A stretch of 64,000 nt of DNA from Ignavibacteria bacterium RIFOXYB12_FULL_35_14 (GTDB lineage Bacteria > Bacteroidota > Ignavibacteria > Ignavibacteriales > Ignavibacteriaceae). The notes beneath the pieces are model-generated. The model was not told the DNA's origin, did not search any database, and saw nothing but the letters and a program-made list of their open reading frames with translations. Of this stretch, positions 36,511-54,766 are shown piece by piece (the stretch's first letter is position 1; each line of letters starts with the position of its first letter). Position numbers and translations under genes: made by a program. The stretch covers positions 3,498 through 67,497 of the forward strand of contig MHAR01000090.1 of the NCBI GenBank assembly GCA_001803045.1, given 5' to 3'.

Positions 36511-36561
36511 TCACATGATAGTTGGAAAATTAAATTAAATTTAATTTAATAAATTCTTAAG

Positions 36562-36596: not shown

Positions 36597-36614
36597 ACTT
36601 TTTAAAGGTGAAAA

Positions 36615-36923: not shown

Positions 36924-36992
36924 TTCATAGAATGGATAAAATTTAAATCCACCAATAACTGGTAATCAATAAGAAAATATAGGAAATCTACA

Positions 36993-37373: not shown

Positions 37374-37474
37374 TCAAATGATTGTTAGAAAATTAAATTT
37401 AAACCAGTTTAATAATCTTTTAGGGCCGAAAAACAGTTTGTATTTTCAGCCCCTCTACTTTTTAAAGGTGAAAA

Positions 37475-38848
37475 ATGATTGAAGTCAAATTTACAGCAGA
37501 AAAGCAAGACGGACAGGCAATAAGCGGTTCACTATCGGTTTCCTCTTATGGTGAGGGGAAGAAAAAAATTCAACGTCTTGCCGAGAAAAATCATTTGAAA
37601 ATAAAAGCAATTGAGCGTAAGGTAACCTATCTCTACAAAGCCAGGAAAGGTACAGATAAACCAATTAGGGGCGAACAAAAAGCATATTCAAAAAAAGAGG
37701 TAGATGATGCTTTAACTAGATTGGGTTTTAAAGTTCTGTCCGTCAATCGTAAATTAATTGACTTTCAAAGAAAACCACCAACGGCTGAAATAGTAACTTT
37801 TGTCAAAATCAGTGCAGAACTCTTGGAACAGAAACTTGCTTATGGCGAAATATTATCGCTTCTGATAAATGATACTCAGAACAAAACTCTTAAGGATACA
37901 TTAAAGGAAATTAATAATGATCTAAAAAAGGGTGCTGATAGTGAGGCAACATTCTTGAAGTATCAAAATGTTTTCGGAAAGTTCACTGCTTACATGCTTG
38001 GACTGGCTTCTAAAAGCGGTAACATGTCTGAAATTTATAAAGCCACTGCTAAATTTTTAGAGAGACGACAGGAATTCAAAAAGAGTTTAAGAAGTGCTTT
38101 AATAACTCCAGCAGTTACAATATTTGTCTTATTCTTAGCGGTTGTGTTTTATGTTGGATACATCTTTCCGGAAACAGCTAAACTATTCGTAAAATTTGGA
38201 ATCGAGCTTCCGCCAATGACAGCGTTTACCCTAAAGATGAGTGATTTTCTTACAAGTTATATTTTAATTATCATGGGATTAGCCGCAATACCACCGATTG
38301 TTCTTTGGCAAATGTCGAAAACTAAAAAGGGAGGAATAATTCTTGGGCGGATGATGTTGAAATTGCCTGTAATGGGTTCGCTCATACACAAAACATTAAT
38401 TGAGGTTTTTTGCAGAGTATTTTATACTCTTTACAGCGGTTCGGCTGAGAGTATCGAACCGATTAGAATTGCATCAGAGGCAGCAGGTAATAAATATTTC
38501 GAAGACCGAATAAAAAATGTTGCTATTCCATTAATGCTTAAGAAAGGGACAGGACTTACAGAGGCATTCGAAGCTTCCGGAGTTTTTACAGAAACAGCAC
38601 TATCAAGATTGCATTCAGGCGAAGAAACCGGAACGGTTAAAAACACTTCGCTGCAGCTTGCAAATTATTATGAAAGTGAAACTGTTTACCGTTTGAAAAA
38701 CTTGATTGAAGTGATTCAGGTAGCAATTGCGATGATAATAATGGTTGTAATGATTCTCTTGACATTAGTATCTGCAGAAACGGCTACAGTAAGACCGCCG
38801 ACACCTGGAGCATCAAATCAAATTAATGTTGAAAGAAATATAGGATGA
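37475..38848 (+). CDS. pilC: type IV pilus / T2SS platform protein (PilC/GspF family)
   Basis: Two GspF-type repeats, each ending in a TM pair (…GNMSEIYKATAKFLERRQEFKKSL… and …GEETGTVKNTSLQLANYYESE…). The N-terminal cytoplasmic domain is of the KF.A..QDGQ..SG type. Confidence 0.9.
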   Translation: MIEVKFTAEKQDGQAISGSLSVSSYGEGKKKIQRLAEKNHLKIKAIERKVTYLYKARKGTDKPIRGEQKAYSKKEVDDALTRLGFKVLSVNRKLIDFQRKPPTAEIVTFVKISAELLEQKLAYGEILSLLINDTQNKTLKDTLKEINNDLKKGADSEATFLKYQNVFGKFTAYMLGLASKSGNMSEIYKATAKFLERRQEFKKSLRSALITPAVTIFVLFLAVVFYVGYIFPETAKLFVKFGIELPPMTAFTLKMSDFLTSYILIIMGLAAIPPIVLWQMSKTKKGGIILGRMMLKLPVMGSLIHKTLIEVFCRVFYTLYSGSAESIEPIRIASEAAGNKYFEDRIKNVAIPLMLKKGTGLTEAFEASGVFTETALSRLHSGEETGTVKNTSLQLANYYESETVYRLKNLIEVIQVAIAMIIMVVMILLTLVSAETATVRPPTPGASNQINVERNIG

Positions 38849-40635
38849 TCGAAACCAATCTGGGCATGTCCGATAAAATTGGTTACCTCCTTTTTAAAAA
38901 AGGAATAATCGATACACAAATTCTCGAAAAGTCGCTGAATGTTAAATCGGAAGAGAAGGGGAAAATAAAGCGAAACCTCGCCCAGATATTAGTACAAAAT
39001 TTTGATTTTGATCATGATACAATATTTAAAGAAGTTGCAATACTTTATGCTTTCCGCGAACTTGAATTACCGGAAGGTGAGCCATTACAACATAAAATTG
39101 AAACAATAAAACAAGCGGTTGATAAAGTCAGCGATCAATTAAAACAAATGATGGCTGAGCATAAGGTAATTCCTTATGCTTATGATGAAAGGTTAAGAGA
39201 CAAATTAATTCTCGCAGCAATAGACCCGACCGATCGAAGTATTCCCAAAATAGCTTATGCATTAAATGCCAGGAAATATGAAGTAGTCTTCCTAAAAAAG
39301 AAAGATTTTGATAAAATAAGTCAATCAATACTTCCGGTCGAAAACGTTTACTTAAAAGCAATTGAAGACTCATCAGTGGAAATGGATATTGAAAGCGATG
39401 AAGCGTCTCTTGATGAGCAAGAACTTGATGCCGAAATAAATAAGAGTGCATTAATAAATCTCGTGGAAGGTGCCTTGGTAGAAGGAGTTCGAAAAGATGC
39501 CAGTGATATCCACTTTATACCCAAAGCAGGTCATAAAACCGAAATTCTTATTCGTATAGATGGAAATCTTCAACCATGGCATATCCAGGAAAACACCCTT
39601 CCCGAAGCAGTTGTTGCAGTTATTAAAGATCGTTCAAAAGGAATGGATAGATTTGAAAGAGAAAAAGCACAAGACGGTTTTATCCAGAGAGAGATTGACG
39701 GTCAAATAATAAGATTCAGAGTTTCAGTTCTTCCAATGGTGGGCACTGAATTAAGAAATAAATTTGAAAGCGTAGTAATAAGAATTCTTGATGACCGAAA
39801 GGTTGTTAAAGATTTAAGTAAGCTTGGACTTACGGGCTATGCTCAAGATGCTTTTGTAAAAGCCATCAGTCAGCCGCAAGGAATGGTTATTCTAACAGGA
39901 CCAACTGGAAGCGGTAAGAGTACCACATTAGTTGCAGCACTTTACCAGGTAATTGATCCAAGCGTAAACGTTCTCACCGTAGAAGATCCCGTTGAATATG
40001 TAATTGAAGGTGCCCGTCAGCTTAAAATTGGATACAAGATGGATTTTGAACAGGCAATTAGGTCCATTCTGCGTCATGACCCGGATATTGTTTTGGTGGG
40101 TGAGATGAGAGATAAAGAAACTGCTGAGGTTGCTATAAAGTTGGCAAACACAGGTCACTTGACCTTTTCAACTTTACATACTAATGATGCACCAAGTGCT
40201 GTTGCCAGATTGTATAAAATGGGTATTGAGCCGTTTTTAATTGCGTATGCAATAAACATCATAATGGCACAAAGGTTAGTTCGCAAATTATGCGAAGCTT
40301 GTAAAACAAAGGTTACTAAACTGGATGAGGATTTATTGTCAGCTGCTGGTATAGATATTAATGAATTAAAAAAGCATACAATCTTTGCAGCAAAAGGATG
40401 TGATAAATGTCATGGAACTGGTTACAAAGGTAGAATGGCGATACACGAAGCACTTTATTTCACAAAAGAAATACGACAAATCATCGTGCGCTCAGGTATT
40501 GAAGTCGATGAAGAGAAGATAAGAATTCAAGCTAAAAAAGACGGTTCAAAATCATTAAGAGACTCTGGAATAGAAAAAGTAATGTTGGGTCTTTCCTCGA
40601 TAGAAGAGGTACTTGCTTCAACTACCGACGAGTAG
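38845..40635 (+). CDS. pilB: type IV pilus assembly ATPase (PilB/GspE family)
   Basis: Walker A GPTGSGKST, GEMRD (Walker B/Asp box), TGHLTFSTLHTND His box, tetracysteine CEACK...CDKCHGTGYKGR, and a GSPII_E N-terminal domain. Confidence 0.9.
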   Translation: MIETNLGMSDKIGYLLFKKGIIDTQILEKSLNVKSEEKGKIKRNLAQILVQNFDFDHDTIFKEVAILYAFRELELPEGEPLQHKIETIKQAVDKVSDQLKQMMAEHKVIPYAYDERLRDKLILAAIDPTDRSIPKIAYALNARKYEVVFLKKKDFDKISQSILPVENVYLKAIEDSSVEMDIESDEASLDEQELDAEINKSALINLVEGALVEGVRKDASDIHFIPKAGHKTEILIRIDGNLQPWHIQENTLPEAVVAVIKDRSKGMDRFEREKAQDGFIQREIDGQIIRFRVSVLPMVGTELRNKFESVVIRILDDRKVVKDLSKLGLTGYAQDAFVKAISQPQGMVILTGPTGSGKSTTLVAALYQVIDPSVNVLTVEDPVEYVIEGARQLKIGYKMDFEQAIRSILRHDPDIVLVGEMRDKETAEVAIKLANTGHLTFSTLHTNDAPSAVARLYKMGIEPFLIAYAINIIMAQRLVRKLCEACKTKVTKLDEDLLSAAGIDINELKKHTIFAAKGCDKCHGTGYKGRMAIHEALYFTKEIRQIIVRSGIEVDEEKIRIQAKKDGSKSLRDSGIEKVMLGLSSIEEVLASTTDE

Positions 40636-40730
40636 TATCCCTTTTACTAAGGTAATAATTACTAAGAATTGCTTTCGATTTCGCAATAAATTTATATCAC
40701 TGACTGGAATTTACTTGCATAAAATTTGAT

Positions 40731-42053
40731 TTGAATCCTACGGCACAGATACTTAAAAACAAAATTAAAGGCAATAGTGTGGCAGTCCAAGCTCTAGATC
40801 AAGTTCCTTCGAAAAGGAAAGCAATTCCTGTAGAAGAAGTAAAAAGAGTTCTTTCGGAATTTACTGAAAGCATTCCGGGCGACCTGAGAGGTCCTGATAA
40901 AGTTCTATATCTTTTCGAAAACAGTGTGAAGCTTCCAACCGAGAGCAAAGTACTATTGAAAGAGTACTTTGATCATTTATTAATTAATATGATTGAGCGA
41001 GATGCCTCTGACATTGAAATCGGTGGGCATGGCAACGAGGGGTATATATGGTTTAGGATTTATGGAATTAAAGAAAGAGCAATGGACCTGCCTCGTTTTA
41101 CCGAAGATGAATCTACAATGATCATCATCAATTTATTAAATGCCAACCAAAAGAAATATATATCGGTCGCCAAAAATCTTGATTTCAGTTACTCATGCTA
41201 TTACGAAAGGAAAAAGTTAAACATTCGTTTCAGAGCAGATGCATACTTTGAGCTTGATACTCTTGCCCTAAACATGCGTGCAATCAATTTGAATATAAGG
41301 CCTCTCGACTCACTTGGCTTTCATCCAAACGTTGTAAGAGTAATGAGCCATAGCTACATCAAGTTTGGCTTATCGTTAATAACAGGAATTACCGGTTCGG
41401 GTAAATCGACTACGCTTGATGCGATAATTGATGAGCATAATAAGTGCGATCCGGCACATGTTATTGTTATTGCTTCGCCTATAGAATATGTACATCGTTC
41501 GAACAAATGTATAATTAAACACAGAGAAGTTGGCAGAGATGTCATCTCTTTTAAAGATGGTGTTATTCAAGCGATGAGACAGGATCCGGATATTATAGTA
41601 ATTGGTGAAATGAGAGATCCCGAAACAATTTTAGCAGCACTTGAAGTTACCGATACGGGGCATAAAGTGTTCTCAACTCTCCATACTTCATCTGCGGTTG
41701 AATCAATTGATAGAATTGTTGCTGAGGTTAATCCTCATGAACAGGAGAGAGTAAGACATAGATTGGCTGATGTTTTAGTGTCCATAGTCTCACAAAAATT
41801 GCTTCCGGGTGTAGATGGTAAATTAGTCTTAGCAAAGGAAGTATTGGTAGTTACCCCCAGTGTAAAAGCCGCAATTAAGAACAATACCACAAGTGAAATT
41901 TACCTTATGATAAATCAAGGCGGCCCAATGGGTATGTTGACAATGGAACAAGATTTGAGGCGATTATATCTGAATAAAAAAATATCATTGGAAAATGCCA
42001 TTGCATATGCCAATAATAAAACAAGAATTCAACAACTTTTATCGGCTATCTAA
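40731..42053 (+). CDS. pilT: PilT-like retraction ATPase with ~100-aa N-terminal extension
   Basis: Walker A GITGSGKSTT, IGEMRDPETI, GHKVFSTLHTSSAVESIDRI. It lacks the Zn-binding Cys motif, as PilT/PilU do. TTG start. Confidence 0.8.
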   Translation: MNPTAQILKNKIKGNSVAVQALDQVPSKRKAIPVEEVKRVLSEFTESIPGDLRGPDKVLYLFENSVKLPTESKVLLKEYFDHLLINMIERDASDIEIGGHGNEGYIWFRIYGIKERAMDLPRFTEDESTMIIINLLNANQKKYISVAKNLDFSYSCYYERKKLNIRFRADAYFELDTLALNMRAINLNIRPLDSLGFHPNVVRVMSHSYIKFGLSLITGITGSGKSTTLDAIIDEHNKCDPAHVIVIASPIEYVHRSNKCIIKHREVGRDVISFKDGVIQAMRQDPDIIVIGEMRDPETILAALEVTDTGHKVFSTLHTSSAVESIDRIVAEVNPHEQERVRHRLADVLVSIVSQKLLPGVDGKLVLAKEVLVVTPSVKAAIKNNTTSEIYLMINQGGPMGMLTMEQDLRRLYLNKKISLENAIAYANNKTRIQQLLSAI

Positions 42054-43600
42054 TGAAACCTATTGTATGTGTATTTTGCGAAGGCAATGACACAAAAATT
42101 GCTGTCGTAGAAAAAGAAAAAGAAAAAATTAGAGTCCTCATAACTGGTTCGTATAATGTGATTCAACCTCCCGTTGTGGTAACCGAAGGTATTACAAATC
42201 TTAGAGTTGATACTGACGATCTTTCTTTTGAAGATTTGGATAAAGCATCTCCTATTACTGATGTAGAAGTGGTTAGCACTTCTGGTTTAGCATTAATAAG
42301 TACATCTCTCAAAGGAATTAATCTGAATAACAGCGTATTTATTCCGATTCTTACCGAACCAGTGCTTCATTACCATGTTTATGAGGGAAGTAAATTAGGC
42401 AAATCATCAAAATTCACTCAAGAGCTTATTAGAGATATTTATGAAACCAAGAACATAACAGTAAGCAAAGATGAATTAGCGTTTGTTGAACTTGCTGATA
42501 AATCTTCTCTGGCTGTTTTTCTTAACGGAGAAATAAGCTGTGTTAAATTGATAAACTCTCTTGCCGGATATAACGGTAAAAAGTTTTACAAAATACCAAC
42601 AATTAAAAGTGCTGAAATATCACTTGCAAATTATGTTGCTAAGAAAAAGAAATTTTTCCCCGATGATCAATCTCTTATTGTATATATCGGTAAAGAGTAT
42701 AGCAAGCTTATCTTTTTACAAGGAAGAAAATTAAAGCACATTGGTACAACGCTTGATATTGGTACCACAAACCTACACACTTACGATGTTTACTTCTCCA
42801 AAATTTTACTTGAAATGGATAATGGCGGTATAACATCACTTGATAATATAATTGTTTGCGGTGAAGATGATTCTGAAAATTTAATTCTTTCTTTTTATGG
42901 TACCTTTCCCGAAGCCAATGTTTCTAGATTAGAATTTGATGAGATAGATTATTCATTATTGAGCACCGAAGCTCAAACCTCAATTTCTGCATACAGCATA
43001 ATGCTGGCTATAGCAAATGAATACTTCGACGATCAAGTACAAAAACACTCGGAGAGTATAAACCTTTTACCAAGATATGTTAAAGAAGAACAGAAGGTAT
43101 TTCAGTTTGCATGGCACGGTTATGCTATTCTTCCATTATTATTTGGAGCAACTTTCTTTTTAACACTTCAGATACTGATGAACAATAAAAAGGTTAATGA
43201 ATTAGAAAAAGAAATTGCACAGCAAACGGTATTGCTTAGGCAGAATCAGGAAATACTTGGGCGTATTGCAGCCCTTGAAAGCAAGATAAGCGGATTTGGT
43301 CAAACTCAGGCAATATTAGATTCTGCATCCGTTGGAACTGGTGTTTGGTCAAAAGTAACAGAACATTTTTCTGATTTCTTTGGAGCTAAACAAAATATTT
43401 GGCTTACAAAGGCAGGTGCAGATGGGAATAACATAGCTCTGGAAGGTTTCACATTATCAAAGCTATCGCCAACAGAATTTGCATACTCAATCGATGGTTC
43501 GGAATTGAAAGGAATTTATTTCGAATCGATTCGTGAGAAAAACGCTTATCGTTTTAACCTAAATTTTAATCTATCACAATTTCCCAAAGTGACACAATGA
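42053..43600 (+). CDS. PilM-PilN fusion-like alignment protein
   Basis: The N-terminal ~340 aa has actin-like segments (VYIGKEYSKLIFL...LDIGTTNL). It is followed by the INLLPRY motif, a TM helix and a coiled coil, which is the PilN hallmark. Confidence 0.6.
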   Translation: MKPIVCVFCEGNDTKIAVVEKEKEKIRVLITGSYNVIQPPVVVTEGITNLRVDTDDLSFEDLDKASPITDVEVVSTSGLALISTSLKGINLNNSVFIPILTEPVLHYHVYEGSKLGKSSKFTQELIRDIYETKNITVSKDELAFVELADKSSLAVFLNGEISCVKLINSLAGYNGKKFYKIPTIKSAEISLANYVAKKKKFFPDDQSLIVYIGKEYSKLIFLQGRKLKHIGTTLDIGTTNLHTYDVYFSKILLEMDNGGITSLDNIIVCGEDDSENLILSFYGTFPEANVSRLEFDEIDYSLLSTEAQTSISAYSIMLAIANEYFDDQVQKHSESINLLPRYVKEEQKVFQFAWHGYAILPLLFGATFFLTLQILMNNKKVNELEKEIAQQTVLLRQNQEILGRIAALESKISGFGQTQAILDSASVGTGVWSKVTEHFSDFFGAKQNIWLTKAGADGNNIALEGFTLSKLSPTEFAYSIDGSELKGIYFESIREKNAYRFNLNFNLSQFPKVTQ

Positions 43601-44490
43601 ACAGGAAACTAAAAAATACGTTTGCTCTTGCAGGGCTGTTGTTATTTATTTTGATAGCCGGTGGAGTATATATTTTAATTTTACAACGCGGTGAATTGTC
43701 CGCTAAAGAAGAAAAACTAAGAGAATTAAAGGCAAATGATTATAACACAGAGCAATTAACTCTTCAATATGAAGATCTTTACCAAAGATCTGTAGTTCTC
43801 GATTCAGTACTTGCAGCTAGAAAATTTAATATTCCACAAAATCTATCTTCCATAAAATTTTATGATTTCGTAACTCGGTTAACTAATTTACTAACTGAAG
43901 ATACAAAGATTGATGTTGAATATGGAGAACAAAAACAAGAGCGAGATTTTTATTACTACGAGTATAAAGTTAAAGGTATAGCCCCTTACAACGATCTATA
44001 CAAATTCATTTATGGAATTGAACAAAGCAAAGAGCTTAAGAAAATTACATCGATCACTCTAGGAAGTCTTGTTAAAAATGAAAAAGAGGAAGGTCCGAAA
44101 TTCCTTGTTGCTTTTGCGTTCGTTGTTCATGTTTATTTTTCGAACGATAATCGTTTTGCCACAGCAGAGTTTGTAGAAAACAACCTATCAGCGCGCCCTT
44201 TGTATGATGCATTCTATCCATTACTTAGAAACGAAATTCCTTTAAATACCGAAGGTCTACTTGATATTCAGGGTGCAAAACTTCTGGCACTTGTACCTGA
44301 AGGTGCATTTCTAGCGGACGCAACTGGCAGTACATTCTTACTGTGGGAAGGTGAACCAGTTTACCTTGGGTATTTGACCAGCATCGATTATAAAAATAAT
44401 AAGGTGAAGTTTATTATTAACAGGGGCGGTGTAATCGAAAAAGTAGAGTTGTTTTTGGAAAAAGAAGAAGCAAATAAGAAAAATAAATGA
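43597..44490 (+). CDS. PilO-like protein with PilP-like C-terminal beta domain (possible fusion)
   Basis: N-terminal TM helix plus coiled coil (PilO layout). The C-terminal LLALVPEGAFLADATGSTFLLWEGEPVYLGYLTSIDYKNNKVKFII resembles the PilP/GspC HR-type beta-sandwich. Confidence 0.45.
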   Translation: MNRKLKNTFALAGLLLFILIAGGVYILILQRGELSAKEEKLRELKANDYNTEQLTLQYEDLYQRSVVLDSVLAARKFNIPQNLSSIKFYDFVTRLTNLLTEDTKIDVEYGEQKQERDFYYYEYKVKGIAPYNDLYKFIYGIEQSKELKKITSITLGSLVKNEKEEGPKFLVAFAFVVHVYFSNDNRFATAEFVENNLSARPLYDAFYPLLRNEIPLNTEGLLDIQGAKLLALVPEGAFLADATGSTFLLWEGEPVYLGYLTSIDYKNNKVKFIINRGGVIEKVELFLEKEEANKKNK

Positions 44491-45734
44491 GAGTAGAAAT
44501 TATGAAAACAGTAATATTATCATTGGTGTTGTTTTCGTTTGTCACTGTAACTGGATTATCTCAGCAATACCTTGAAAGGCAATTCAAGGGTTATATAAAT
44601 CCAGATGAGTTAGTTACTATGTCCGCAAATCTGCCATTTGACCAAGCAGTTGATCTCCTAAGCAAGGTTAGCGAGAGCTTGAGAGGAAAAAGGATAGTAT
44701 CAACCTACCAAAGCTCGGAACCAATCGGGTTAGAAATCGAGAACATGCAATATGAAAAGGCATTGGTTGTTTTGGTTCAGTATCGTGGATTAATGTATGA
44801 AGAAAAAGAAGATGTAGTCATTATTAAAAAGAGGGGCGAGAAAATAGATAATAGAACAGCCGAAAATTATGTCTCTGTTGATTCGCGAGAAGTAAAAATT
44901 TCAGCTGTATTCTTTGAAATGGATGTTAATGAGGCGCGGAAACGTGGGGTAGATTGGAAACTAATTTTTGAAAAGAAGGGATTAGACATAGGCGGACTTT
45001 TAGGTGTAGATAAAACCAAGACTCAAAGTCAAGGAACAAGCACTTTGCAAGAACCAACTTTTGATCTGGGCGTAGCCGGCGATTTTAATATAGGTAATTT
45101 CTTCGGTGAAGCCACGGCAATATTTAAGTTTTTTGAAACTGAAAATATAGGAGAAGTAATTGCAAGTCCTACGATAGTTGTTCGAGATGGTCGCCCGGGA
45201 AGAATTCAGGTTGGTTCGGATATATCTATTAAGCAAAAAGATTTTGCGGGAAACGTTATCGAGAATTTTTTCTCAACCGGTACAATCATTAATGTAACAC
45301 CTTATGTAATCAATGAAGAGGGTGTGGACTATACCCTCTTAAAAATTATTGCCGAAAGAAGCACCTTCGTGCCCGATCCATCTAATACTATAATCAATAA
45401 AACCCAAGCTTCTACGGAAGTTATTATGCTTAATGGTGAAGAAACTGTGATAGGTGGATTATTTGTAAATGATGAGGTAAAAATACGTTCAGGTGTCCCG
45501 ATTCTTAAAGATCTTCCGTGGTATGTATTAGGACTTAGGTATATCTTTGGTTCAGATGAGGTTCGGTTAAGTAAAAAAGAACTTGTAATTCTTCTTAAAG
45601 CAGAACTTGTTCCAGCATTGAAAGATCGCTTAGCCGGCACAAGCTCTACTACTCCTGTTCGTGATGAAGTTTTAAAACAGAGAGAAAAATTAAAAATGTA
45701 TCAATTCAATCAACAATTTGGTAACGGGAATTAG
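44487..45734 (+). CDS. secretin (short PilQ/GspD family)
   Basis: The C-terminal secretin core reads VIASPTIVVRDGRPGRIQVG...TEVIMLNGEETVIGGL...SGVPILKDLPWYVLGLRYIFG. The signal peptide begins at the internal MKTVILSL, so an alternative start at 44502 is possible. Confidence 0.8.
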   Translation: MRVEIMKTVILSLVLFSFVTVTGLSQQYLERQFKGYINPDELVTMSANLPFDQAVDLLSKVSESLRGKRIVSTYQSSEPIGLEIENMQYEKALVVLVQYRGLMYEEKEDVVIIKKRGEKIDNRTAENYVSVDSREVKISAVFFEMDVNEARKRGVDWKLIFEKKGLDIGGLLGVDKTKTQSQGTSTLQEPTFDLGVAGDFNIGNFFGEATAIFKFFETENIGEVIASPTIVVRDGRPGRIQVGSDISIKQKDFAGNVIENFFSTGTIINVTPYVINEEGVDYTLLKIIAERSTFVPDPSNTIINKTQASTEVIMLNGEETVIGGLFVNDEVKIRSGVPILKDLPWYVLGLRYIFGSDEVRLSKKELVILLKAELVPALKDRLAGTSSTTPVRDEVLKQREKLKMYQFNQQFGNGN

Positions 45735-45743
45735 AGCCTGTTT

Positions 45744-46109
45744 ATGGAATCAATTTTAATTGTTGATGACGATTTAGGAGTATGCACAACTTTAAAGGAA
45801 GAGCTGGCTGAAGTTGGTTACGAAGCAGATTTTCTTTTAAGAGGTACAGAAGTATATGATTATCTGAAAACCAATTCGGTTGATCTTATACTTCTGGATT
45901 TAGTACTGCCCGAAAAAGACGGTTATGAGGTTTTAAAAGAAATCTCGGAAAATAAATTTGATGTGAAAGTTGTAGTATTAACAGCATATGCCGATGTGAA
46001 GAGTGCTATCGATTCGGCAAGGCTTGGTGCGAGTGATTTTATTAGTAAACCATATGATTTAGATGAATTACTAATAACAATTCGTAAGGTTCTGCAGCGA
46101 GATGATTAG
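45744..46109 (+). CDS. single-domain response regulator (CheY-like)
   Basis: DD...D (LILLDLVLPEKDG)...T...K receiver motifs, 121 aa. Confidence 0.85.
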   Translation: MESILIVDDDLGVCTTLKEELAEVGYEADFLLRGTEVYDYLKTNSVDLILLDLVLPEKDGYEVLKEISENKFDVKVVVLTAYADVKSAIDSARLGASDFISKPYDLDELLITIRKVLQRDD

Positions 46110-46111
46110 TA

Positions 46112-49100
46112 ATGAAAATAAGCTACCGAATACTTTTTATTAACTTTTTTGTTGTAGTATTAATTATAGGAAGCGCCTCCTTTGCTTTCTATTCCATAAT
46201 GTATAATGTTCTTACCAGTCAACAATCCAAATATCTACTTAAATCCTCCAATGATTTTATTTTTGCATACAATGAAACTTTTCAGAACACAGAAGATGAT
46301 TTTAATCAATTATCAAGAACAGAATTATTTTCTGGGGAAAGATTAAAATCTACCAGCATTGATTTTATCCTGGAACAAGATTCAAAAAACGTAAAAATCT
46401 ATTCACGCTCAGTTGTAAAAGCGGGAGTAAATCTCTCGCAAAAGTTCTCGTCGCTTGAAGAATTCATCAGCAATAATCCATCGGCAGTAATTAAAAGCCA
46501 TACATTTCCGGATGGAACTTCGGTTTATTATGGTCGTTTGCTTACGGATGAGTTCCTTAATTCCATTGCTCAAAAAATAAATGCTCAAGTTGTAATCATA
46601 ACAGGCAACTCAACACTGCAGGTATCAAATCAGTCGGCTAATCAGCAGTACATTTACTTTCTGAATAAAGCCTATAATAATTTATCCCGGCGAGAAAAAT
46701 TTAATGTTTATTCTGAAGATTCAGGTCAAGCTGATATCATATCAACACTTTGCAATATTTCGTCTAATATAAATGAAAATCAAAACCTCAAATTCCTAAT
46801 ATTCTCAACACTGAATGAAGCGGCAGATTTACGATCTAGCATTAAGTATATTTTAATCACAGTTGGAATAGCAGGTGTATTACTTTCACTCATTTTGACT
46901 TTCATGTTTACGCAAAAAATTAGAAGTCAGCTTCATTTGTTAAGTAATGCAACTGAACTTACAAAACAGGGAAACTTCAAAAATAAAATCGAAATTAAAT
47001 CAAATGATGAAATCGGACAATTAGCTTCGGCCTTTAACAACATGCTTGACGAGCTAGATAAACATGATCGAGCAATTACGGACTATTCCGATTTTATTGC
47101 TCTCATCAATAGAAATGCTTCTTTAAAGGAAATTGCAGATGCGGCATTGAATAAAATTATTAAAACGTGTGGATTTGCCGTCGGTGCAATCTATGCAGTA
47201 AAAGGCAGTTCCATTACGCTGATTCGTTCGTATGGTATTAAAGGAAAAACCGCCGCGGAAGATTATGAGTTTTTCGATTCAGCAATTAAGAATCGTGAAA
47301 TGCTCGAGCTTAATTTTGAAAAGAATTTTCCGACAGTTTCATCGGGAATTATCTCTCTTGAAATCAAGCACATGCTGTTGATTCCAATTATTTATAACAA
47401 CGAGGTAATTGCACTTCTGGAACTTGGCGGTTTGGATAGTCCATCTCAGGCAGTAAAGAATTACCTATCAAAGATTCAAGAACAGCTTGCGATTGGCTTA
47501 ACAAATGCTTTTGCATTTGTGCAGCTTGAAAATCTTGTTGTTGAGTTGAAGCTTTTGAATGAAGAATATCAAAAACAGAATCAACAGGTAAAGCAGCAAA
47601 ACGAATCATTAATAAAATTACACGATCAGCTCAGGGATAAAGCACGCGAACTTGAAGTTCAAAAATTGAGAGCTGAGGAATCTACAAAGCTAAAATCCCA
47701 ATTCCTGGCAAGTATGTCTCATGAGCTGCGAACTCCAATGAATTCTGTACTTGGATTAACAGAGCTAATACTCGATGAATCAACGTTATTAAACCCCAAA
47801 ACTAAAGAACGGTTGGAAATTGTTCATCGCAGCGGTAAACGTTTAATGAGTTTGATAAATGATATTTTAGATCTGTCCAAAATCGAGGCGGGGAAAATGG
47901 ATCTTAAACACGATGACGTTCTGCTCGAGGATATAATTCTTGATCTGGAAGCTTCAATAAGGCCATTAGTTGTAAAAAAGCATTTAGAACTTAAGATTGT
48001 TAGGAAAGCAAACACAAATGTTTTCATTGCTACCGACAGAGGAAAAGTAACTCAAGTTTTAATCAACTTACTGGGCAACGCAATTAAGTTTACTGAGCGG
48101 GGATTTGTTGAGCTTCATGTGGATGATTTGGGTGAAAATCAATTAAGATTTGATGTTGTTGATTCGGGAATAGGAATATCGATTGAAGATCAGAAAATAA
48201 TTTTTGAAGAATTCAGGCAGATAGATGGAACTGCCGCGCGAAAATACAGCGGCACAGGTTTAGGATTATCAATCTGTAAAAAAATTGCAGAGATGCTTAA
48301 CGGTTCGTTAAGCGTTGAAAGTCAGCTTAACAAGGGTTCGGTTTTCTCATTCATAATTCCTTTTAAAGTTTCATCAGAAAAAGAGCGACAAAAACAATCC
48401 GTTAATGTTGAAACCTTGAGGAAGAATAGAAAAAATCCAATCCTGGTAATTGATGATGATGCCGATATTAGAATTACTATTGGGCAATACTTGGAATCAA
48501 GGGGCTACAAAGTTGTTTATGCCGATAATGGTGCAAGCGGTGTTAATCTTGCAAAAGAACTGCAGCCGTTTGCAATAACTTTAGATTTGCTATTGCCTAA
48601 CAAAGATGGCTGGACCGTTCTTAAAGAATTGAAAGAGAATCCTGCAACTAAGAATATACCGGTTATTTTAGTTTCCATTATTGGCGATAAAAATCTTGGT
48701 TACGGGCTTGGAGCTTTCGAATATTTCGTAAAGCCAATATCACACAATGAGCTACTTTCAGCATTTAACAAACTAGAGAATTACGCTAGAAAAAAAATAG
48801 AAAAAATTATTTTGGTTGATGATGATGAATTAGAATTTGAGAGATTCAAGCGAGTATTGCATAATGATGGGGTTACCGTTCATTTTATTAAAGATAGTCA
48901 GTTTGCGTTTAATAAGATAGTTGATATTCAGCCCGATCTAATTGTTCTTGATTTACTTATGCCCGGAATAGATGGAATTACACTGACGCATGAACTAAGA
49001 AATTATAAAGAAACCAAACACATACCGATAATTATCAGCACAGCAAAAGATTTAAATGATGAAGAAAAAAATTCGCTTCGGCATATTGTTGAAGACATTA

Positions 49101-49660
49101 CGGTAAAATCTAAAGGTCATCCTCACGATGTTCTAAAAATTGTTAGAGATAGGATAAGAATGGATGAACTTTCATACTATGTTGAAGATACCGCAGGAAA
49201 ACAGCCTTTGGAAGAGATAGAAATTCTGAGTGACCAGATTCGGAATGTTTCTTTAGATGAAAAAAAAAACCGCAAAGAATTGCTCGGAGAAGTTTTAATT
49301 GTTGATGATGACCCTGACACTTTGTTCACAATCAATGAAATCGTTCAATCGTGCAATTGCACAACTTTTGTTGCTAAAAACGGACTTGAATGCCTTAACA
49401 TCTTAGAAAAAAATTTACCCGATCTTATTTTACTTGATATCATGATGCCGGAGATGGATGGTTTTCAGACCATAAAAAAAATACGCGAAAACTCAAATTG
49501 GAGGCATGTACCGGTTTTTGCAGTCACGGCACGCGCTATGCTGGAAGATCGGCAGATCATCCTTAAAAATGGATTTGATGATTATATAACTAAACCTGTC
49601 AATGCAGGGGTTATTTCATTCAAAATTGAAAAATTATTTTCAAAGATAAGGGCAACATAA
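46112..49660 (+). CDS. hybrid sensor histidine kinase: 2 TM + extracytoplasmic domain, HAMP, GAF, HisKA, HATPase, three receiver domains
   Basis: H-box SHELRTPMNSVLG, N/G boxes (NLLGNAIKFT, DSGIGI, GTGLGLSI), and three REC modules with LDLLLPNKDG, LDLLMPGIDG and LDIMMPEMDG. Confidence 0.9.
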   Translation: MKISYRILFINFFVVVLIIGSASFAFYSIMYNVLTSQQSKYLLKSSNDFIFAYNETFQNTEDDFNQLSRTELFSGERLKSTSIDFILEQDSKNVKIYSRSVVKAGVNLSQKFSSLEEFISNNPSAVIKSHTFPDGTSVYYGRLLTDEFLNSIAQKINAQVVIITGNSTLQVSNQSANQQYIYFLNKAYNNLSRREKFNVYSEDSGQADIISTLCNISSNINENQNLKFLIFSTLNEAADLRSSIKYILITVGIAGVLLSLILTFMFTQKIRSQLHLLSNATELTKQGNFKNKIEIKSNDEIGQLASAFNNMLDELDKHDRAITDYSDFIALINRNASLKEIADAALNKIIKTCGFAVGAIYAVKGSSITLIRSYGIKGKTAAEDYEFFDSAIKNREMLELNFEKNFPTVSSGIISLEIKHMLLIPIIYNNEVIALLELGGLDSPSQAVKNYLSKIQEQLAIGLTNAFAFVQLENLVVELKLLNEEYQKQNQQVKQQNESLIKLHDQLRDKARELEVQKLRAEESTKLKSQFLASMSHELRTPMNSVLGLTELILDESTLLNPKTKERLEIVHRSGKRLMSLINDILDLSKIEAGKMDLKHDDVLLEDIILDLEASIRPLVVKKHLELKIVRKANTNVFIATDRGKVTQVLINLLGNAIKFTERGFVELHVDDLGENQLRFDVVDSGIGISIEDQKIIFEEFRQIDGTAARKYSGTGLGLSICKKIAEMLNGSLSVESQLNKGSVFSFIIPFKVSSEKERQKQSVNVETLRKNRKNPILVIDDDADIRITIGQYLESRGYKVVYADNGASGVNLAKELQPFAITLDLLLPNKDGWTVLKELKENPATKNIPVILVSIIGDKNLGYGLGAFEYFVKPISHNELLSAFNKLENYARKKIEKIILVDDDELEFERFKRVLHNDGVTVHFIKDSQFAFNKIVDIQPDLIVLDLLMPGIDGITLTHELRNYKETKHIPIIISTAKDLNDEEKNSLRHIVEDITVKSKGHPHDVLKIVRDRIRMDELSYYVEDTAGKQPLEEIEILSDQIRNVSLDEKKNRKELLGEVLIVDDDPDTLFTINEIVQSCNCTTFVAKNGLECLNILEKNLPDLILLDIMMPEMDGFQTIKKIRENSNWRHVPVFAVTARAMLEDRQIILKNGFDDYITKPVNAGVISFKIEKLFSKIRAT

Positions 49661-49661
49661 T

Positions 49662-50363
49662 ATGAAACGAATATTGGTTATAGATGACTTACCTGAAAAT
49701 GTATTTATGCTTCAAGATCGGCTCGAAAATGAAGGTTATGAAGTAGTAACAGCTTACGACGGAAAAACCGGTATTGCCAAGGCAACAAACGATATGCCCG
49801 ATCTTATTCTTTTAGATGTTATGATGCCTGAAATGACAGGTATAGAAGTTTGTAAAATTCTTAAACAAGATCCCGGTACAGCAGACATTCCAATAATAAT
49901 TGTTACAGCTAAATCCGGTGCTGATGATGCTAAAGAGGGATTAGATGCCGGAGCATTGGATTACATCAAGAAGCCATTTGAAAAAGTAGAAATGTTAGCA
50001 AGAATAAATTCAGCTTTGAGATTGGCAGAAGCACATAAGCAAGTTATTGAAGCTGAAAAAAGAAGCACCTATGCGGCTACCGTTGTAACCACTAATCATA
50101 AAATTAAACAGCCGCTAACATTGATGAGCCTTTCTTCTGCGGCGATTAAGAGAGAATTAAATAAAGAACAGATTTCTAAAGAAGCAATCTTAAATCGGTT
50201 GAATTATATTGAAACAGCAATTAATGAGATTACTAACATTCTTAATCAGCTTAATGCAATAAAAAAACCACAGACTTCAGAGTATGCAAAAAATGTAAGG
50301 ATGGTAGAGGTTGAAAAGGATTCTGCGGAAAATTTCTCAGATAAACTTGCGGATAGTGGATAG
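49662..50363 (+). CDS. response regulator receiver fused to a DHp/H-box-like helical domain (no ATPase domain)
   Basis: REC motifs (LLDVMMPEMTG, VTAK, KP), then NHKIKQPLTLM, which resembles an SHELRTPL-type H-box, and helical sequence to the C-terminus. Confidence 0.7.
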   Translation: MKRILVIDDLPENVFMLQDRLENEGYEVVTAYDGKTGIAKATNDMPDLILLDVMMPEMTGIEVCKILKQDPGTADIPIIIVTAKSGADDAKEGLDAGALDYIKKPFEKVEMLARINSALRLAEAHKQVIEAEKRSTYAATVVTTNHKIKQPLTLMSLSSAAIKRELNKEQISKEAILNRLNYIETAINEITNILNQLNAIKKPQTSEYAKNVRMVEVEKDSAENFSDKLADSG

Positions 50364-52316
50364 CATAGTATCGAACTCATAGGGTTTTGTGACTAAGCTT
50401 GTAACCCCCACTTTTTTAACATCAGGGCTCGATTCTACGGACAAACTGCCTGTTGATAAAATAATTGGTATTTTGTAATTAAGTTTTCGCACTTGTTCTA
50501 CGCAATCCAATCCATTCATACCTGGCATATTGTAATCAATAATAAGTAAATCCACCTTCATTTCTTCAGTTAACACTCTTAATACCTCGGTACCGGAGGT
50601 AACCCTGATCACATTAAATCCACTGGATTCTAAAAGCTCAGCGAGCAAATCTCTCAGCATAATTTCATCATCGGCCAATAAAATTATTTTTTCAGAAGGC
50701 TCTGCCGTTATTTCATGAGAGATTGGTTCATAAGCCGGAATGTATACGTTAATCGTTGTTCCCTCATTTAATTTACTTGTAACATCAACGTGTCCTTTGT
50801 GAGCTTTGATAATTCCGTAAGTAACATATAATCCTAAACCCGATCCTGTATCCTTTTTCTTTGTGGAGAAGTATGGATCAAAAATTTTGCGGATATTTTC
50901 TTCCGATATTCCTTCTCCGGTGTCAGTGACGGAGAAACAAACGTATTTACCCTTATCAAGCCATGGAAAATTTGAAATGTTTTTAGCATCAACAAAAACA
51001 TTTTTAGCTGACAAAGTTATTTTTCCCGCACCAATAATAGCTTCCTTAGCATTAACACATAAGTTTAATAGTATCTGGTAAATTTCAGTTGGGTTTCCTA
51101 AAATATCGCTTATTTTTTCTTCAGTGACGCTTTCAAAAGTAAGTTCTTTGGAAAATGTTTGATTGACTACTTTGGAAAGTTCAGTGATAAGTAGGTTGGG
51201 TTTTATTAACTCCTTTTGTTTAAGGGTAGGCTTCCCGAAAGATAATAATCCTTTTGTTAGATCTCTTGCCCTCACGGCACAATTCTCTATGTTATCAATC
51301 ATTCGAGTAATATTATCTGTTTGAGGGACGCGCTTCTTCAGTAGGGTTAAACTTCCGAAAATGCTTGACAGCAAGTTGTTGAAATCGTGAGCCATACCGC
51401 TGGACAATTTTCCGATGGTTTCAAGCCTTTGTCCCTGCAAAAGTTTTTTTTCAATTTCAGTATTTAGGTCACGTGCTTTTATGCCGCTTATTATGAAGGC
51501 GAGCAGAGAGGATAATTGTTCTATGTTACCCATCTCATGATGCGAAAATTTATTTTCTTTTTTACCAAGAATAACCGCAGCTAATAATTTATTTTGAATA
51601 AAACATGGTGAAATTAATATATAGTTGCATTGCAAAACGTGAGCTAAGTTAAAGCCAATACTATTTGGTGCAGATGTAATTGTTAAGGGTTTTTTATTTA
51701 CCATTAACCACTTAGTAATAAAAGAAAAACTTGCTTTCAATTCTTTTTCTACGTCTGGTTTGTTTTGTATTTGATTGTTCGTGTCATTAAAAAGTATTTC
51801 ATATCTCGTATCTTCTTCACAAAAGACTATTAGCCCTGAATTGCTCTCTGTTATTTTTTCGCCTCTCGTCAATATTTCTTTACATAGCACAGTTAAAGAG
51901 TTTTCTTTTACAAGCAGGCTGAGAATATCGTGCAGCTCTTTCTGAAATTCAACATTTTTTTGAATAATGTTTTCGTGTTTTTCGTTTAGAGTTCGCTTTG
52001 TTTGAGGTGAATAAATTCTTATAAAATAACCTTCGGGTTTATTCTTTTTAACTAAGGGATAGACGCTTAAGTTTTGATGTGCGGGTAAAGTAATATTGAG
52101 AGGTTTGTTTTTTTCTAAAATCCTCAGATCATCTTCATCTTTTATTATGAAAAGATCATAAAAGGATTTGCCTTTAATTTTTGCAAAACCAGAATTTTCT
52201 TTGAAACTTTTGTTGAACCATAGAATATTTCCGTCCTTATCAGCAATAGCCAGAGAATTGCCTTCAACTTCTAAAAGCTCCGAGAGAGCAAAGTTAGAAA
52301 TTATTTTATTCAGCAT
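50337..52316 (-). CDS. hybrid sensor histidine kinase (PAS/GAF, HisKA, HATPase, receiver)
   Basis: H-box MAHDFNNLLSSIFG, G boxes DTGEGI and GSGLGL, C-terminal REC (LLIIDYNMPGMNG). The start is set at ATG 52316, 4 nt after the activator's stop; the track ORF extends to 52382. Confidence 0.85.
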   Translation of the reverse strand: MLNKIISNFALSELLEVEGNSLAIADKDGNILWFNKSFKENSGFAKIKGKSFYDLFIIKDEDDLRILEKNKPLNITLPAHQNLSVYPLVKKNKPEGYFIRIYSPQTKRTLNEKHENIIQKNVEFQKELHDILSLLVKENSLTVLCKEILTRGEKITESNSGLIVFCEEDTRYEILFNDTNNQIQNKPDVEKELKASFSFITKWLMVNKKPLTITSAPNSIGFNLAHVLQCNYILISPCFIQNKLLAAVILGKKENKFSHHEMGNIEQLSSLLAFIISGIKARDLNTEIEKKLLQGQRLETIGKLSSGMAHDFNNLLSSIFGSLTLLKKRVPQTDNITRMIDNIENCAVRARDLTKGLLSFGKPTLKQKELIKPNLLITELSKVVNQTFSKELTFESVTEEKISDILGNPTEIYQILLNLCVNAKEAIIGAGKITLSAKNVFVDAKNISNFPWLDKGKYVCFSVTDTGEGISEENIRKIFDPYFSTKKKDTGSGLGLYVTYGIIKAHKGHVDVTSKLNEGTTINVYIPAYEPISHEITAEPSEKIILLADDEIMLRDLLAELLESSGFNVIRVTSGTEVLRVLTEEMKVDLLIIDYNMPGMNGLDCVEQVRKLNYKIPIILSTGSLSVESSPDVKKVGVTSLVTKPYEFDTMLSTIRKFI

Positions 52317-52320
52317 TTCG

Positions 52321-53691
52321 TTAGTCTTGCCTGATCTCGTATTTTTTAATTTTTGTATAAAGTGTTTTAGGACTGATGCCAAGCTGGTTAGCTGTCTGAG
52401 TTCTATCCCACTTGTTAAGTTTAAGAATTTTTGCGATATGATGCTTTTCCATCTCGTCCATACTAAGTATTTCAGCTATGCGAATATTCTCTTCATTCAT
52501 TAGCGGCTGTGATGCCCTTGCGGTTGCACTTACAGGAAGATTGAGGTCGTCCGGTTCAATTAGTTCGCCTTCCGAGAAAATTATTGCCCGCTCAATTGTG
52601 TGTTCAAGCTCGCGGACATTGCCGGGAAAATTATAATTCAGAAGAGTCAATTCGGATTTTGGCGAAAGATTTTTTGGCGATCTTATTGGTGATTTTGCTT
52701 CAAGAAAAAATTTAGCAAGTACCGGTATATCATCTCTTCGATCTCTTAGCGGAGGAATTGTTAGCGTTATAACATTCAAGCGGAAGAGTAAATCACGTCT
52801 AAAATTTTTATTATCAGCTTCTTCTAAAAGATTTCTGTTCGTTGCCCCAATTACTCTAACATTAGAATTGAGATTTGCAACTCCACCGATCCTTCTGTAT
52901 TCACCATTCTCAAGAAAGCGTAAAAGTTTGGGTTGAAGCGATAAGCTCATTTCACCAATTTCATCTAAGAATAAAGTGCCGCCATTGGCTATCTCTACTA
53001 AACCTTGTTTTGTATTTTTTGCATCTGTAAAGGCTCCGCGCTCATGTCCGAAAAGTTCGCTTTCAATTAATTGATCGGGAAGCGAGGCACAGTTGATTAC
53101 AACAAATGGTTTGTCTGCACGGGTGGAATGTTTATGGATATATTCGGCAAAAAGCTCTTTACCGGTACCGGTTTCTCCTTCAATAAGAATGTTTGAATCG
53201 GACATAGCGGCTTTACTGGCAAGATTAATAATTCTTTGAAGCTGCGGGCTATCGCCTACAATGTTATGAGGAAGTTTTTTATTTACAATATCTGTGAGAA
53301 CAGTATTCTTAACTAAAAGAGATTTATGATCTGCCGCATTATTTATTGTCACCAGCAATTCGTCAAAATCGTAAGGTTTAGTAATGTAATCATAGGCACC
53401 CATTTTTATGCAATCTATAGCTTTGCGAATTTCATTTTGTGCTGTGAGGATAACAACAATTAAAGACGGGTTATAATCATTTACAAACTTTAGAACTTCT
53501 TCTCCGGGAACTTCCTGCATATTCAAATCAAGAAGAAGCATATCATAATTTTTACGTTTAATTGCTTCTATAGCGTATTTACCGTCATAAACGGTATCAA
53601 CCGAGAAACCCTCTTCAAGAAGCTGTTCCTTCAGAAGATAGCTTAGGGTTTCATCATCATCACAGACTAAAATTTTTGAATTTTTAGACAT
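52321..53691 (-). CDS. sigma-54-dependent response regulator (NtrC/PilR-type enhancer-binding protein)
   Basis: REC domain, AAA+ core with GETGTGKE, the sigma-54 contact loop variant GAFTDA, an ESELFGHE-type segment and a C-terminal Fis-type HTH ([20 protein letters not shown]). Confidence 0.9.
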
Positions 53692-53775
53692 ATCTTAACT
53701 TAGTTTTATTGTACTAATTTCACAATTTATTTGAATTAAAACCTCAAATTTCTATATTTGTGCTCAAAAAATTGA

Positions 53776-53847
53776 GGGCGTGTAGCTCAGTGGTAGAGCA
53801 TTTGCCTTTTAAGCAAAGGGTCGGTGGTTCGATCCCACCCACGCTCA
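53776..53847 (+). tRNA. tRNA-Lys (anticodon UUU)
   Basis: Hand-folded cloverleaf: acceptor gggcgtg/cacgctc, D arm gctc-agtggta-gagc, anticodon arm tttgc-cTTTTaa-gcaaa, T arm ggtgg-ttcgatc-ccacc, discriminator a. No encoded CCA. Confidence 0.9.
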
Positions 53848-54125
53848 CTTTTTTAATAGTAACCGAAATATTGTACTAAATTTTCCATCCGGTATTTAAC
53901 AAAATCATTTTGAAAGTCTTGTTAAAGAACGCAATACTCTCAAATTGCCAGCAAATATAACTATAAAATTTTTAATTCACATCTGTTGATTTTCCAAATC
54001 CCAAAAGAATAATCTGCCTTTTTAACTTTTTTTAAATTATCCTAACCGGATTATTAAAATGTTCTTTATTATTAATAAAAGGAATTATATCTTTCGAAAA
54101 AATTAAAAAACATTTAGGAAATAGA

Positions 54126-54470
54126 TTGGGCGAAATTGTATTTTGGACTATTATGCGAACGGCAATAACCATTCCTTTGGTTTGGCTTCTTCAAGGTTAT
54201 TTGGACTTTCAGTTTTGGTGGGTGCTTAGCTTATTTGCTATATACGGGGTGATAGTTCATCCTGCAATCATTCATTATAGATTGTTTGAAGAAAAAAATA
54301 AAGAAATTATTGAATCAACTTTATGTTCTACTTGTATGCATTTTGATAAATCGGCAGTGCTTTGTATGAAACATGATACACATCCCACACAAGAGTTTTT
54401 GCCTTGTGAGGGTTTAGACTGGGAACCAAATGCATTTCAAACAAGTAAAGACGAGCTGAAATCCGAATAA
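54126..54470 (+). CDS. small membrane protein with Cys-rich C-terminus, unknown function
   Basis: Two TM helices, then CSTC...C...C. The start is uncertain (TTG 54126 or ATG 54153). Confidence 0.35.
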   Translation: MGEIVFWTIMRTAITIPLVWLLQGYLDFQFWWVLSLFAIYGVIVHPAIIHYRLFEEKNKEIIESTLCSTCMHFDKSAVLCMKHDTHPTQEFLPCEGLDWEPNAFQTSKDELKSE

Positions 54471-54766
54471 TGAATTTGCTAAATGATAGTCTACCAAACC
54501 ACTCTCAATCATCCACAGTATAATCAAATCTAAACTTAATTAAATCGGGATCGAATTTCCTCTTTCTTATCAACTCATAATCATAAATAACCTTTCCGAT
54601 GTTTGGAAGGAAAGGAAAAACTATTTGATCATATTTTTACTTACCATTATCAATTAAGTAATAATTGATGTATTCATAATAATTTAGTTCATCTTAAAAA
54701 TTTTCTGCTAATTGTGTCACTTATTTCCCTTGAAAGTAACTATACAGATAATAAAATAGAGAAAGA

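Follow-up and report, generated by a model that had tools for sequence, protein, structure and literature searches.

How is a type IV pilus controlled in a bacterium that encodes neither flagella nor a chemotaxis kinase? Control of this organelle is known mainly from Proteobacteria, through the PilS-PilR pair plus the Chp chemosensory system. The question is raised by a stretch of 64,000 nucleotides (nt) on contig MHAR01000090.1 of Ignavibacteria bacterium RIFOXYB12_FULL_35_14, hereafter the window. The source genome is a metagenome assembly of the family Ignavibacteriaceae, with 4.1 Mb in 95 contigs and about 35% GC. In the window, a type IV pilus operon is accompanied by a block of five signalling genes: a small receiver (REC121), two hybrid histidine kinases (HHK1182 and HHK659), a sigma-54 activator (EBP456) and a receiver joined to a dimerization and histidine phosphotransfer (DHp) domain (REC-DHp). 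The block is intact and linked to the pilus, whereas the pilus can do without the block. The kinase-less REC-DHp is its only really unusual, under-described component.

Layout of the block and its kinase-less member

The pilus operon (35680-45734, + strand; Pfam T2SSF, T2SSE twice and Secretin, together with pilin sequences) comprises three MGQQQ pilins, PilC, PilB, a PilT-like ATPase, two scaffold genes and the secretin. Next on this strand come three signalling genes, set off by 9, 2 and 1 nt, close to the 2-10 nt given by a first-pass annotation made from the DNA letters. They are REC121 (45744-46109, + strand), with 121 residues and one receiver (Pfam Response_reg, E 2.9e-26); HHK1182 (46112-49660, + strand), whose 1182 residues include HAMP (270-316), GAF (336-461), HisKA (528-594) and HATPase (642-752) domains and three receivers; and REC-DHp (49662-50363, + strand), with 233 residues in which Pfam finds a receiver and a sub-threshold HisKA match (146-202). 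A convergent operon has EBP456 (52321-53691, - strand; REC-Sigma54_activat-HTH_8, Sigma54_activat E 1.1e-67 in Pfam) as its first gene and HHK659 (50337-52316, - strand; 659 residues, PAS-GAF-HisKA-HATPase-REC by Pfam) as its second. All five genes lie where the first-pass annotation had placed them.

The gap of 4 nt that had been reported between activator and kinase holds on the condition that HHK659 starts at ATG 52316, and not at the alternative upstream start, TTG 52382. Since the HHK659 orthologues are 658-661 residues long, the ATG is favoured. At the other end of the kinase gene, REC-DHp and HHK659 overlap by 27 nt at their 3′ ends (50337-50363). The same convergent junction is found at loci L001, L006, L025 and L039, which represent both of the orders considered below, with ends that touch or overlap by about 4-20 nt. 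No terminator fits between the two operons. Pfam domain annotation agrees with the earlier count of seven receivers and settles that of the transmitter modules, given before as two or three: there are two full transmitters and one DHp domain without a catalytic domain. A tRNA-Lys gene (anticodon TTT; 53776-53848, + strand), on the strand opposite to EBP456 and 85 nt from its start codon, bounds the block on its outer side.

What kind of protein is REC-DHp? In each of 18 orthologues tested, the 116 residues at its C-terminus give a sub-threshold HisKA match (best E 3.7e-5), and they carry the motif ATVVTANH[KE]IKQPLTL, in which His146 is invariant among 24 sequences. Orthologues vary little in length, from 226 to 234 residues. 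In the AlphaFold2 model (AF2; predicted local distance difference test score, pLDDT, of 80.8), receiver helix α5 continues as a helix spanning residues 108-166, on which His146 is located. A turn and a second helix (173-199) come next, and then about 30 disordered residues (pLDDT below 50). The model contains the DHp hairpin with the histidine on helix 1, as in the phosphotransferases Spo0B and ChpT. Pfam detects no HATPase_c domain in REC-DHp or its orthologues, and no catalytic (CA) domain is seen in the AF2 model; lacking a catalytic domain, the protein cannot autophosphorylate. Its DHp domain is single-copy in the source genome. When the whole model was used as a Foldseek query, receiver matches dominated; LvrB (PDB 8vc9, ranks 23-38) aligns over the whole model and is ranked below many receiver-only matches. 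A sequence search of the PDB with the DHp profile alone gave only coiled-coil noise (E > 0.08) and no similarity to Spo0B.

This DHp type is not confined to the pilus loci. A profile search of 1.84 billion representative proteins recovered 749 clusters (50% identity) that contain it, at the extreme C-terminus in almost all of them. Ten examples (among P0019-P0120) display the architectures TPR-DHp, PAS-DHp, PAS-GAF-DHp, beta-propeller/YYY-DHp, REC-DHp and REC-DHp-REC, and Pfam finds HATPase_c in none of the ten. Sensor-DHp proteins that have no kinase domain thus form a broad family, of which our literature search found no description. REC-DHp, which is easy to purify and has relatives in hundreds of sequence clusters, offers a concrete candidate for a His-transfer or phosphatase node of a new type.

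The two kinases have different sensory parts. The extracytoplasmic sensor that had been ascribed to HHK1182 is real, a dCache-like fold between two transmembrane (TM) helices. In the AF2 model of residues 1-330 (pLDDT 79.6), two TM helices enclose a pair of α/β PDC-like modules, and the HAMP domain comes after the second helix; the dCache domain spans residues 35-240 or thereabouts. Foldseek matches this sensor to the dCache domains of the chemoreceptors TlpA, Tlp3, PctA-D and McpB, and also to the kinase sensors LuxQ, DctB and KinD, with E values down to 2e-5 and TM-scores of 0.3-0.5; Pfam gives no Cache match in the region. The predicted fold suggests that HHK1182 can sense an extracellular ligand. 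HHK659, a hybrid kinase with PAS and GAF domains, has an H-box of the CckA type, AHDFNNLL. No hydrophobic N-terminal segments were seen in its sequence, and we read it as soluble. Its receiver lacks the aromatic switch residue in the alignment to CheY. In Melioribacteraceae the protein has 341-481 residues, its sensor half being trimmed or missing. The best NCBIfam matches of HHK659, VirA-like and CckA, are all below cut-off. None of the five proteins exceeds any curated NCBIfam cut-off, and no equivalog name can be assigned to them.

REC121 had been described as CheY-like and compared with PilG/PilH. Here the first-pass annotation has to be corrected: the best matches of the small receiver are NtrC-type (NtrC1) receivers and Spo0F, and for this reason we rejected it as a PilG/PilH (CheY-type) homologue. 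Within the block, its nearest receiver is that of EBP456, at 39% identity.

Linkage to the pilus and integrity of the modules

Does the block belong to the pilus? The window proteins were mapped onto 29 loci found through the secretin, with secretin identities from 90 down to 42%. REC-DHp, the convergent kinase and the activator are present in the same order at 22 of the 29, two of which (L025 and L029) are without REC121; a further three end at contig edges, after REC121 or after the start of HHK1182. Counted by synteny, the block is kept at 24 secretin-anchored loci. Identity of EBP456 across the class is 52-92%. The DHp profile was also run over 151 genomes of the class, with E <= 2e-32 as the mark of a strong REC-DHp orthologue. 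Such an orthologue is found in all 17 genomes of the window's own order, in 16 of them on the contig with the pilus scaffold and within 6.5 kb. It is also found in 11 genomes of family f15, which belongs to another order, and 10 of these have it within 3 kb of a pilus scaffold gene. The arrangement in f15 (L039, L040) is secretin, REC121 and REC-DHp, followed by a convergent CckA-like hybrid kinase and activator. Two own-order genomes (G017 and G123) have a spacing of 2.4-3.3 kb, which leaves no room for the 3.5-kb HHK1182 gene.

Rearrangement has not separated the activator-kinase pair from the pilus locus. In G002 (locus L020), the activator (61% identical) and an HHK659-like kinase of 450 residues have moved to a position just upstream of the first pilin, in the same direction, and REC121, a shortened HHK and REC-DHp are still in place after the secretin. 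No other observation argues as strongly for a role of the activator pair at the pilus as this survival of the linkage. Genome G001 has four pilus loci. Three of them (L026-L028) are near-identical to one another and have no block; the fourth, L036, has a complete block and is closer to the window's locus. We considered L026-L028 as a refutation of the linkage and rejected it, because the fourth locus of the same genome carries the block. Several of the tblastn matches at the G001 loci are split, suggesting long-read indel errors or decay.

Pilus scaffold homologues are present in 82 of the 151 class genomes, and 53 of the 82, from about a dozen other families, have no REC-DHp orthologue; this finding speaks against a block that is inseparable from the pilus. 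Eight pilus loci lacking REC-DHp were sampled (L051-L058). At four (L051, L052, L054 and L058), only one or two REC121-like small receivers follow the secretin; at L053 the hybrid kinase about 1.7 kb downstream is unrelated, and L055-L057 have no signalling gene of such kind at the pilus locus. At L054:9463-10587 (G010, from a more distant family) two REC121-like receivers stand in tandem after the secretin, an arrangement that recalls the PilG/PilH pair.

The block thus goes with the MGQQQ-pilin locus throughout the window's own order and in one further order, and not in distant families. Filament genes without the block do occur, in those 53 genomes and at the three extra loci of G001; in part, this is the outcome that the first-pass annotation had named as telling against its reading. 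Since they are found so often, the relay is a lineage-specific add-on and not a part of the pilus machine. Because a REC121-like receiver is what stands alone in distant families, the small receiver is the oldest and most general partner of the pilus. The relay is an elaboration confined to two lineages, and its own make-up is modular, with HHK1182 as a dispensable part. The natural series of small receiver only, four-part core and five-gene block offers a convenient system for studying how a phosphorelay grows by added parts.

Are the modules of the block fit for phosphotransfer? Conservation was assessed in 22-24 orthologues drawn from the secretin-anchored loci. When the seven receivers of the window are aligned to CheY, each has the acidic pair, the acceptor Asp, the Thr or Ser and the Lys (DD/D/T(S)/K); for receiver 2 of HHK1182 this takes in its N-terminal strand, which appears at the end of the receiver-1 slice. 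None of the three H-box histidines is missing, and both kinases have their N, G1 and G2 boxes. Gaps aside, the receiver residues are invariant in REC121 (D8/D9/D52/T80/K102, 24 sequences), REC-DHp, HHK659, EBP456 and receiver 3 of HHK1182. Also invariant are H310, the N/G1/G2 boxes and receiver residues D594/K644 of HHK659 (23 sequences), and D55, Walker A/B and the GAFT motif of EBP456 across its orthologues. In HHK1182, H537, the N/G1/G2 boxes and D1109 of receiver 3 are unchanged in every covering orthologue (22-24 of the 25 alignment rows, the remainder being gaps and one X). In roughly one orthologue out of four, namely the more distant ones of Melioribacteraceae type, this kinase has degenerate receivers 1 and 2. 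Degeneracy of the receivers, which had been raised as a possibility, is therefore limited to these two and to some lineages, and five of the seven are intact. By their conserved residues, receiver 3 of HHK1182 and the receiver of HHK659 are C-terminal receivers of the phosphorylatable type, as phosphorelay hybrid kinases require.

The rest of the genome narrows the ways in which the pilus can be controlled. The absence of genes for methyl-accepting chemotaxis proteins (MCP), CheA or CheW from the window had been remarked on, and it extends in large part to the whole genome. No MCP (MCPsignal) match above the Pfam cut-off was found in the source genome, and its one CheW-like open reading frame (ORF) has only 164 residues, from which we conclude that the genome has no CheA. 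In a tblastn search, FlgK, FlgL, MotA and FliW of a relative found no flagellar genes in it. The pilus is therefore the only motility organelle recognised in this genome and, given the lack of CheA and MCP, its control cannot run via the Che pathway. The locus would show a deep Bacteroidota-related lineage wiring extracellular-ligand and cytoplasmic sensors to a pilus without Che proteins or flagella. A genome of the same family (G048) has a flagellar cluster, and the source genome has no flagella, CheA or MCP; flagella and chemotaxis may have been lost within the Ignavibacteriaceae.

That flagellar cluster contains a second version of the receiver and REC-DHp pair. Weaker REC-DHp paralogues occur elsewhere in the class; they are about 30% identical, have 218-250 residues, match HisKA above the Pfam cut-off and sit directly after a single receiver of 131 residues, adjoining kinases. 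In G048 (L048:2242-12588), the gene order is FlgK, FlgL, MotA, MotB, FliW, REC-Hpt, MotA2 and MotB2, after which come the 131-residue receiver, a REC-DHp paralogue of 218 residues, an ORF of 219 residues with no Pfam match and a PAS kinase, a phosphorelay lodged among stator genes. Because the pair of small receiver and REC-DHp is found at two different motility machines, it behaves as a reusable unit. It is tempting to propose, although we give this less than an even chance, that the small receiver and the kinase-less REC-DHp make up an undescribed, Che-independent module of motility control, plugged into both pilus and flagellar stator clusters. Equally tentative is the suggestion that the cassette is a regulated transfer unit akin to Spo0F/Spo0B, within a wider, uncharacterised family of CA-less sensor-DHp proteins that serve as His-transfer nodes.

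A branched relay and the readings that compete with it

How would the phosphoryl group get from the kinases to the activator? Hybrid kinases that end in a receiver normally pass phosphate via a His carrier to a separate response regulator. Both kinases of the block end in receivers, and the source genome has only two Hpt domains, both inside proteins of 877-990 residues. With Hpt domains almost lacking, we propose His146 of REC-DHp as the carrier. Hybrid kinases of the CckA type reach two recipients, a transcription factor and a single-domain receiver, by way of the DHp-fold protein ChpT (PMC9981736). The minimal f15 locus matches this list part for part: its hybrid kinase is CckA-like, and it adds a His-bearing DHp protein, a small receiver and an activator.

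We propose a branched His-Asp-His-Asp relay dedicated to the pilus, with REC-DHp as its transfer node, a reading to which we assign an even chance of being right. Three layers would make up this relay. The NtrC/Spo0F-like REC121, right after the secretin, would be one; EBP456 and HHK659 would be another, acting as a PilR/PilS-like pair that switches on pilin transcription from sigma-54 promoters; and REC-DHp, accompanied by HHK1182 in most genomes of the order, would stand in the middle. The direction of phosphate flow that we infer starts with HHK659, and with HHK1182 where present, each phosphorylating its own terminal receiver. His146 of a dimeric REC-DHp would accept phosphoryl groups from these terminal receivers and hand them on. 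Passed to EBP456, they would give a transcriptional output at the pilin genes; passed to REC121, they would give an output on the machine or be lost to a competing phosphate sink. The receiver of REC-DHp may gate transfer by the DHp domain via the continuous helix, as in Rec-controlled kinases such as LvrB. REC121 is closest to the EBP456 receiver and matches NtrC-type receivers and Spo0F, which fits a phosphate donor shared by the two.

Control of pilin transcription by EBP456 may be suggested from its linkage and from a -24 TGGCAC element with a poor -12. The source genome encodes RpoN. A candidate sigma-54 promoter, TGGCAC-N5-TTTC (35620-35635, + strand), lies 60 nt upstream of the first pilin, and the TGGCAC element is kept at -58/-59 in L002 and L005, the two closest loci that include pilins. 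Clean intergenic TGGCAC sites at -55 to -81 are found in five lineages (the window with L002 and L005; L015 and L016; L018; L023; and L036). L024 has GGCA[C/T]-N5-TTGC sites whose single departure from the consensus is a C in place of T at the first position. Together these elements are suggestive of a sigma-54 promoter at the pilins. Another near-consensus sigma-54 motif, CGGCAC-N5-ATGCT (49527-49542, + strand), is located inside the coding region of HHK1182 receiver 3, 135 nt ahead of the first codon of REC-DHp; since it overlaps conserved codons, those for VTARAM, it is probably a coding coincidence.

Several observations weigh against the branched relay or against its output at the pilins. 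The -12 element is poor (TTTC/TTGT), and many loci have no intergenic TGGCAC site. Relative to the rest of the loci, sense-strand TGGCAC is 24-fold enriched within 200 nt of a pilin start, a raw figure that we discount because about half of the sites are Gly-Thr codons ('GTGTE') in pilin paralogues or decayed copies. The source genome encodes 16 full sigma-54 activators, so the target of EBP456 is assigned by linkage only. Scans for sigma-70 promoters and terminators over 35000-54600 gave matches at the level of shuffled sequence and are uninformative on operon structure. As for the parts of the relay, HHK1182 is absent from the f15 loci, and the two loci that miss REC121 are those of Melioribacter. 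REC-DHp has no equivalent of the CA-like domain of Spo0B and ChpT. Moreover, the HisKA phosphatase motif is E/DxxT/N, and the H-[E/K]-x-x-Q of REC-DHp resembles it, so that its DHp domain could equally be a phosphatase.

A rival account takes the two operons as two separate systems with no relay between them. EBP456 and HHK659 would then be an ordinary PilR/PilS-like pair, in which the receiver of the kinase only modulates or drains phosphate, an arrangement that we hold to be possible and somewhat improbable. REC121, HHK1182 and REC-DHp would be co-transcribed with the machine and tune pilus activity post-translationally, for which we would put the probability no higher. The two sets do sit in opposite, convergent operons, and they vary independently: HHK1182 comes and goes, REC121 is missing at L025 and L029, and the activator pair has moved alone in G002. 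It also fits this account that each of the paralogous REC-DHp cassettes goes with the kinase beside it, and that none includes an activator. However, a kinase that ends in a receiver normally needs a His step, for which this genome offers only the two Hpt domains. The minimal f15 locus retains REC-DHp with the activator pair despite having no HHK1182, and the ends of the convergent genes touch or overlap across orders.

Alternatively, REC-DHp may be a dedicated phosphatase or sink for phosphorylated REC121 or EBP456, its own receiver draining phosphate as well, so that signal termination is speeded in a cell without CheZ/CheX-type enzymes. We regard this as unlikely. It would account for the missing CA domain, and hence for the absence of kinase activity, for the likeness of the invariant H-[E/K]-I-K-Q-P to the phosphatase motif, and for the pairing of REC-DHp with a small receiver, namely REC121 here and the 131-residue receivers in the paralogous cassettes. 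It leaves the route from the hybrid kinases to EBP456 or REC121 unexplained. Against it also stands that in several HisKA kinases the His, strictly invariant here, is not essential for phosphatase activity; a family of CA-less DHp proteins with TPR, PAS and GAF sensors fits regulated transfer equally well. Finally, the block could be no more than a genomic neighbour of the pilus, regulating something else, such as neighbouring proteins of the type IX secretion system (T9SS) type or envelope functions. With 16 sigma-54 activators in the genome, pilus loci in distant families that lack the block and sigma-54 broadly tied to cell-exterior functions (PMC3162934), this is conceivable. Against it, three + strand genes spaced 1-9 nt apart lie directly after the secretin, and the linkage to the pilus persists across two orders and one rearrangement as the outer flanks change; we think it very improbable.

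Comparison with known systems

Is the block, then, a variant of something already described? A literature search on Ignavibacteria pilus regulators returned nothing relevant. The first-pass annotation had set the block apart both from a simple PilS-PilR pair and from a Chp system, and we agree: it is not the former because its kinase is soluble and hybrid, and not the latter because there is no CheA, CheW or MCP. Like the PilS-PilR pair of Pseudomonas, Myxococcus and Geobacter, it nevertheless places a sigma-54 activator of the NtrC type and a histidine kinase beside the pilus genes, in a genome with RpoN, and a candidate -24 element, TGGCAC, precedes the pilins. EBP456 has the REC-AAA+(sigma-54)-HTH architecture of PilR. 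PilS, however, is a multi-pass membrane kinase and is not a hybrid, whereas HHK659 is soluble, has PAS and GAF domains and ends in a receiver; the -12 element is also poor here. Since HHK659 ends in a receiver, a His-transfer step seems to be needed. The likeness to Pil-Chp is in the small receiver: as with PilG/PilH, a single-domain receiver accompanies the pilus machine and may influence it. By contrast, CheA/ChpA, MCP and PilI-type coupling are all missing from the source genome, and REC121 is NtrC/Spo0F-like.

REC-DHp itself invites comparison with proteins from further afield. As in Spo0F-Spo0B of Bacillus, a Spo0F-like small receiver is encoded with a DHp-type His protein, here as a recurring two-gene cassette; Spo0B differs from REC-DHp in having a C-terminal CA-like domain and no receiver. 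In LvrB (Rec-DHp-CA; PMC13269768, PDB 8vc9), receiver helix α5 runs into the DHp helix, as it is predicted to do in REC-DHp, but REC-DHp ends after the hairpin and has no CA domain. For want of a CA-like or CA domain, REC-DHp is outside both the Spo0B/ChpT family and the LvrB-type kinases.

Two relays offer closer parallels for the block as a whole. In ShkA-ShpA-TacA, a sigma-54 activator is fed through a separate His carrier, as we propose for EBP456, and ShkA combines a pseudo-receiver with a true receiver, much as degeneracy affects receivers 1 and 2 of HHK1182 in some lineages. In that relay, the carrier is an Hpt protein and the pseudo-receiver binds cyclic di-GMP (PMC6969517, PMC7010744). 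CckA-ChpT-CtrA/CpdR of Caulobacter (PMC9981736) has a hybrid kinase with the same type of H-box, a DHp-fold carrier, and a transcription factor and a single receiver as outputs. Unlike ChpT, REC-DHp has an N-terminal receiver and no CA-like domain, and no homology between the two was detected. The output here is a sigma-54 activator and not an OmpR-type factor, and the target would be the pilus and not the cell cycle. By analogy, the block would work most like a CckA-ChpT-CtrA/CpdR or ShkA-ShpA-TacA relay set at a PilR-type output, and it is a more elaborate version of the two-component control already known for pili.

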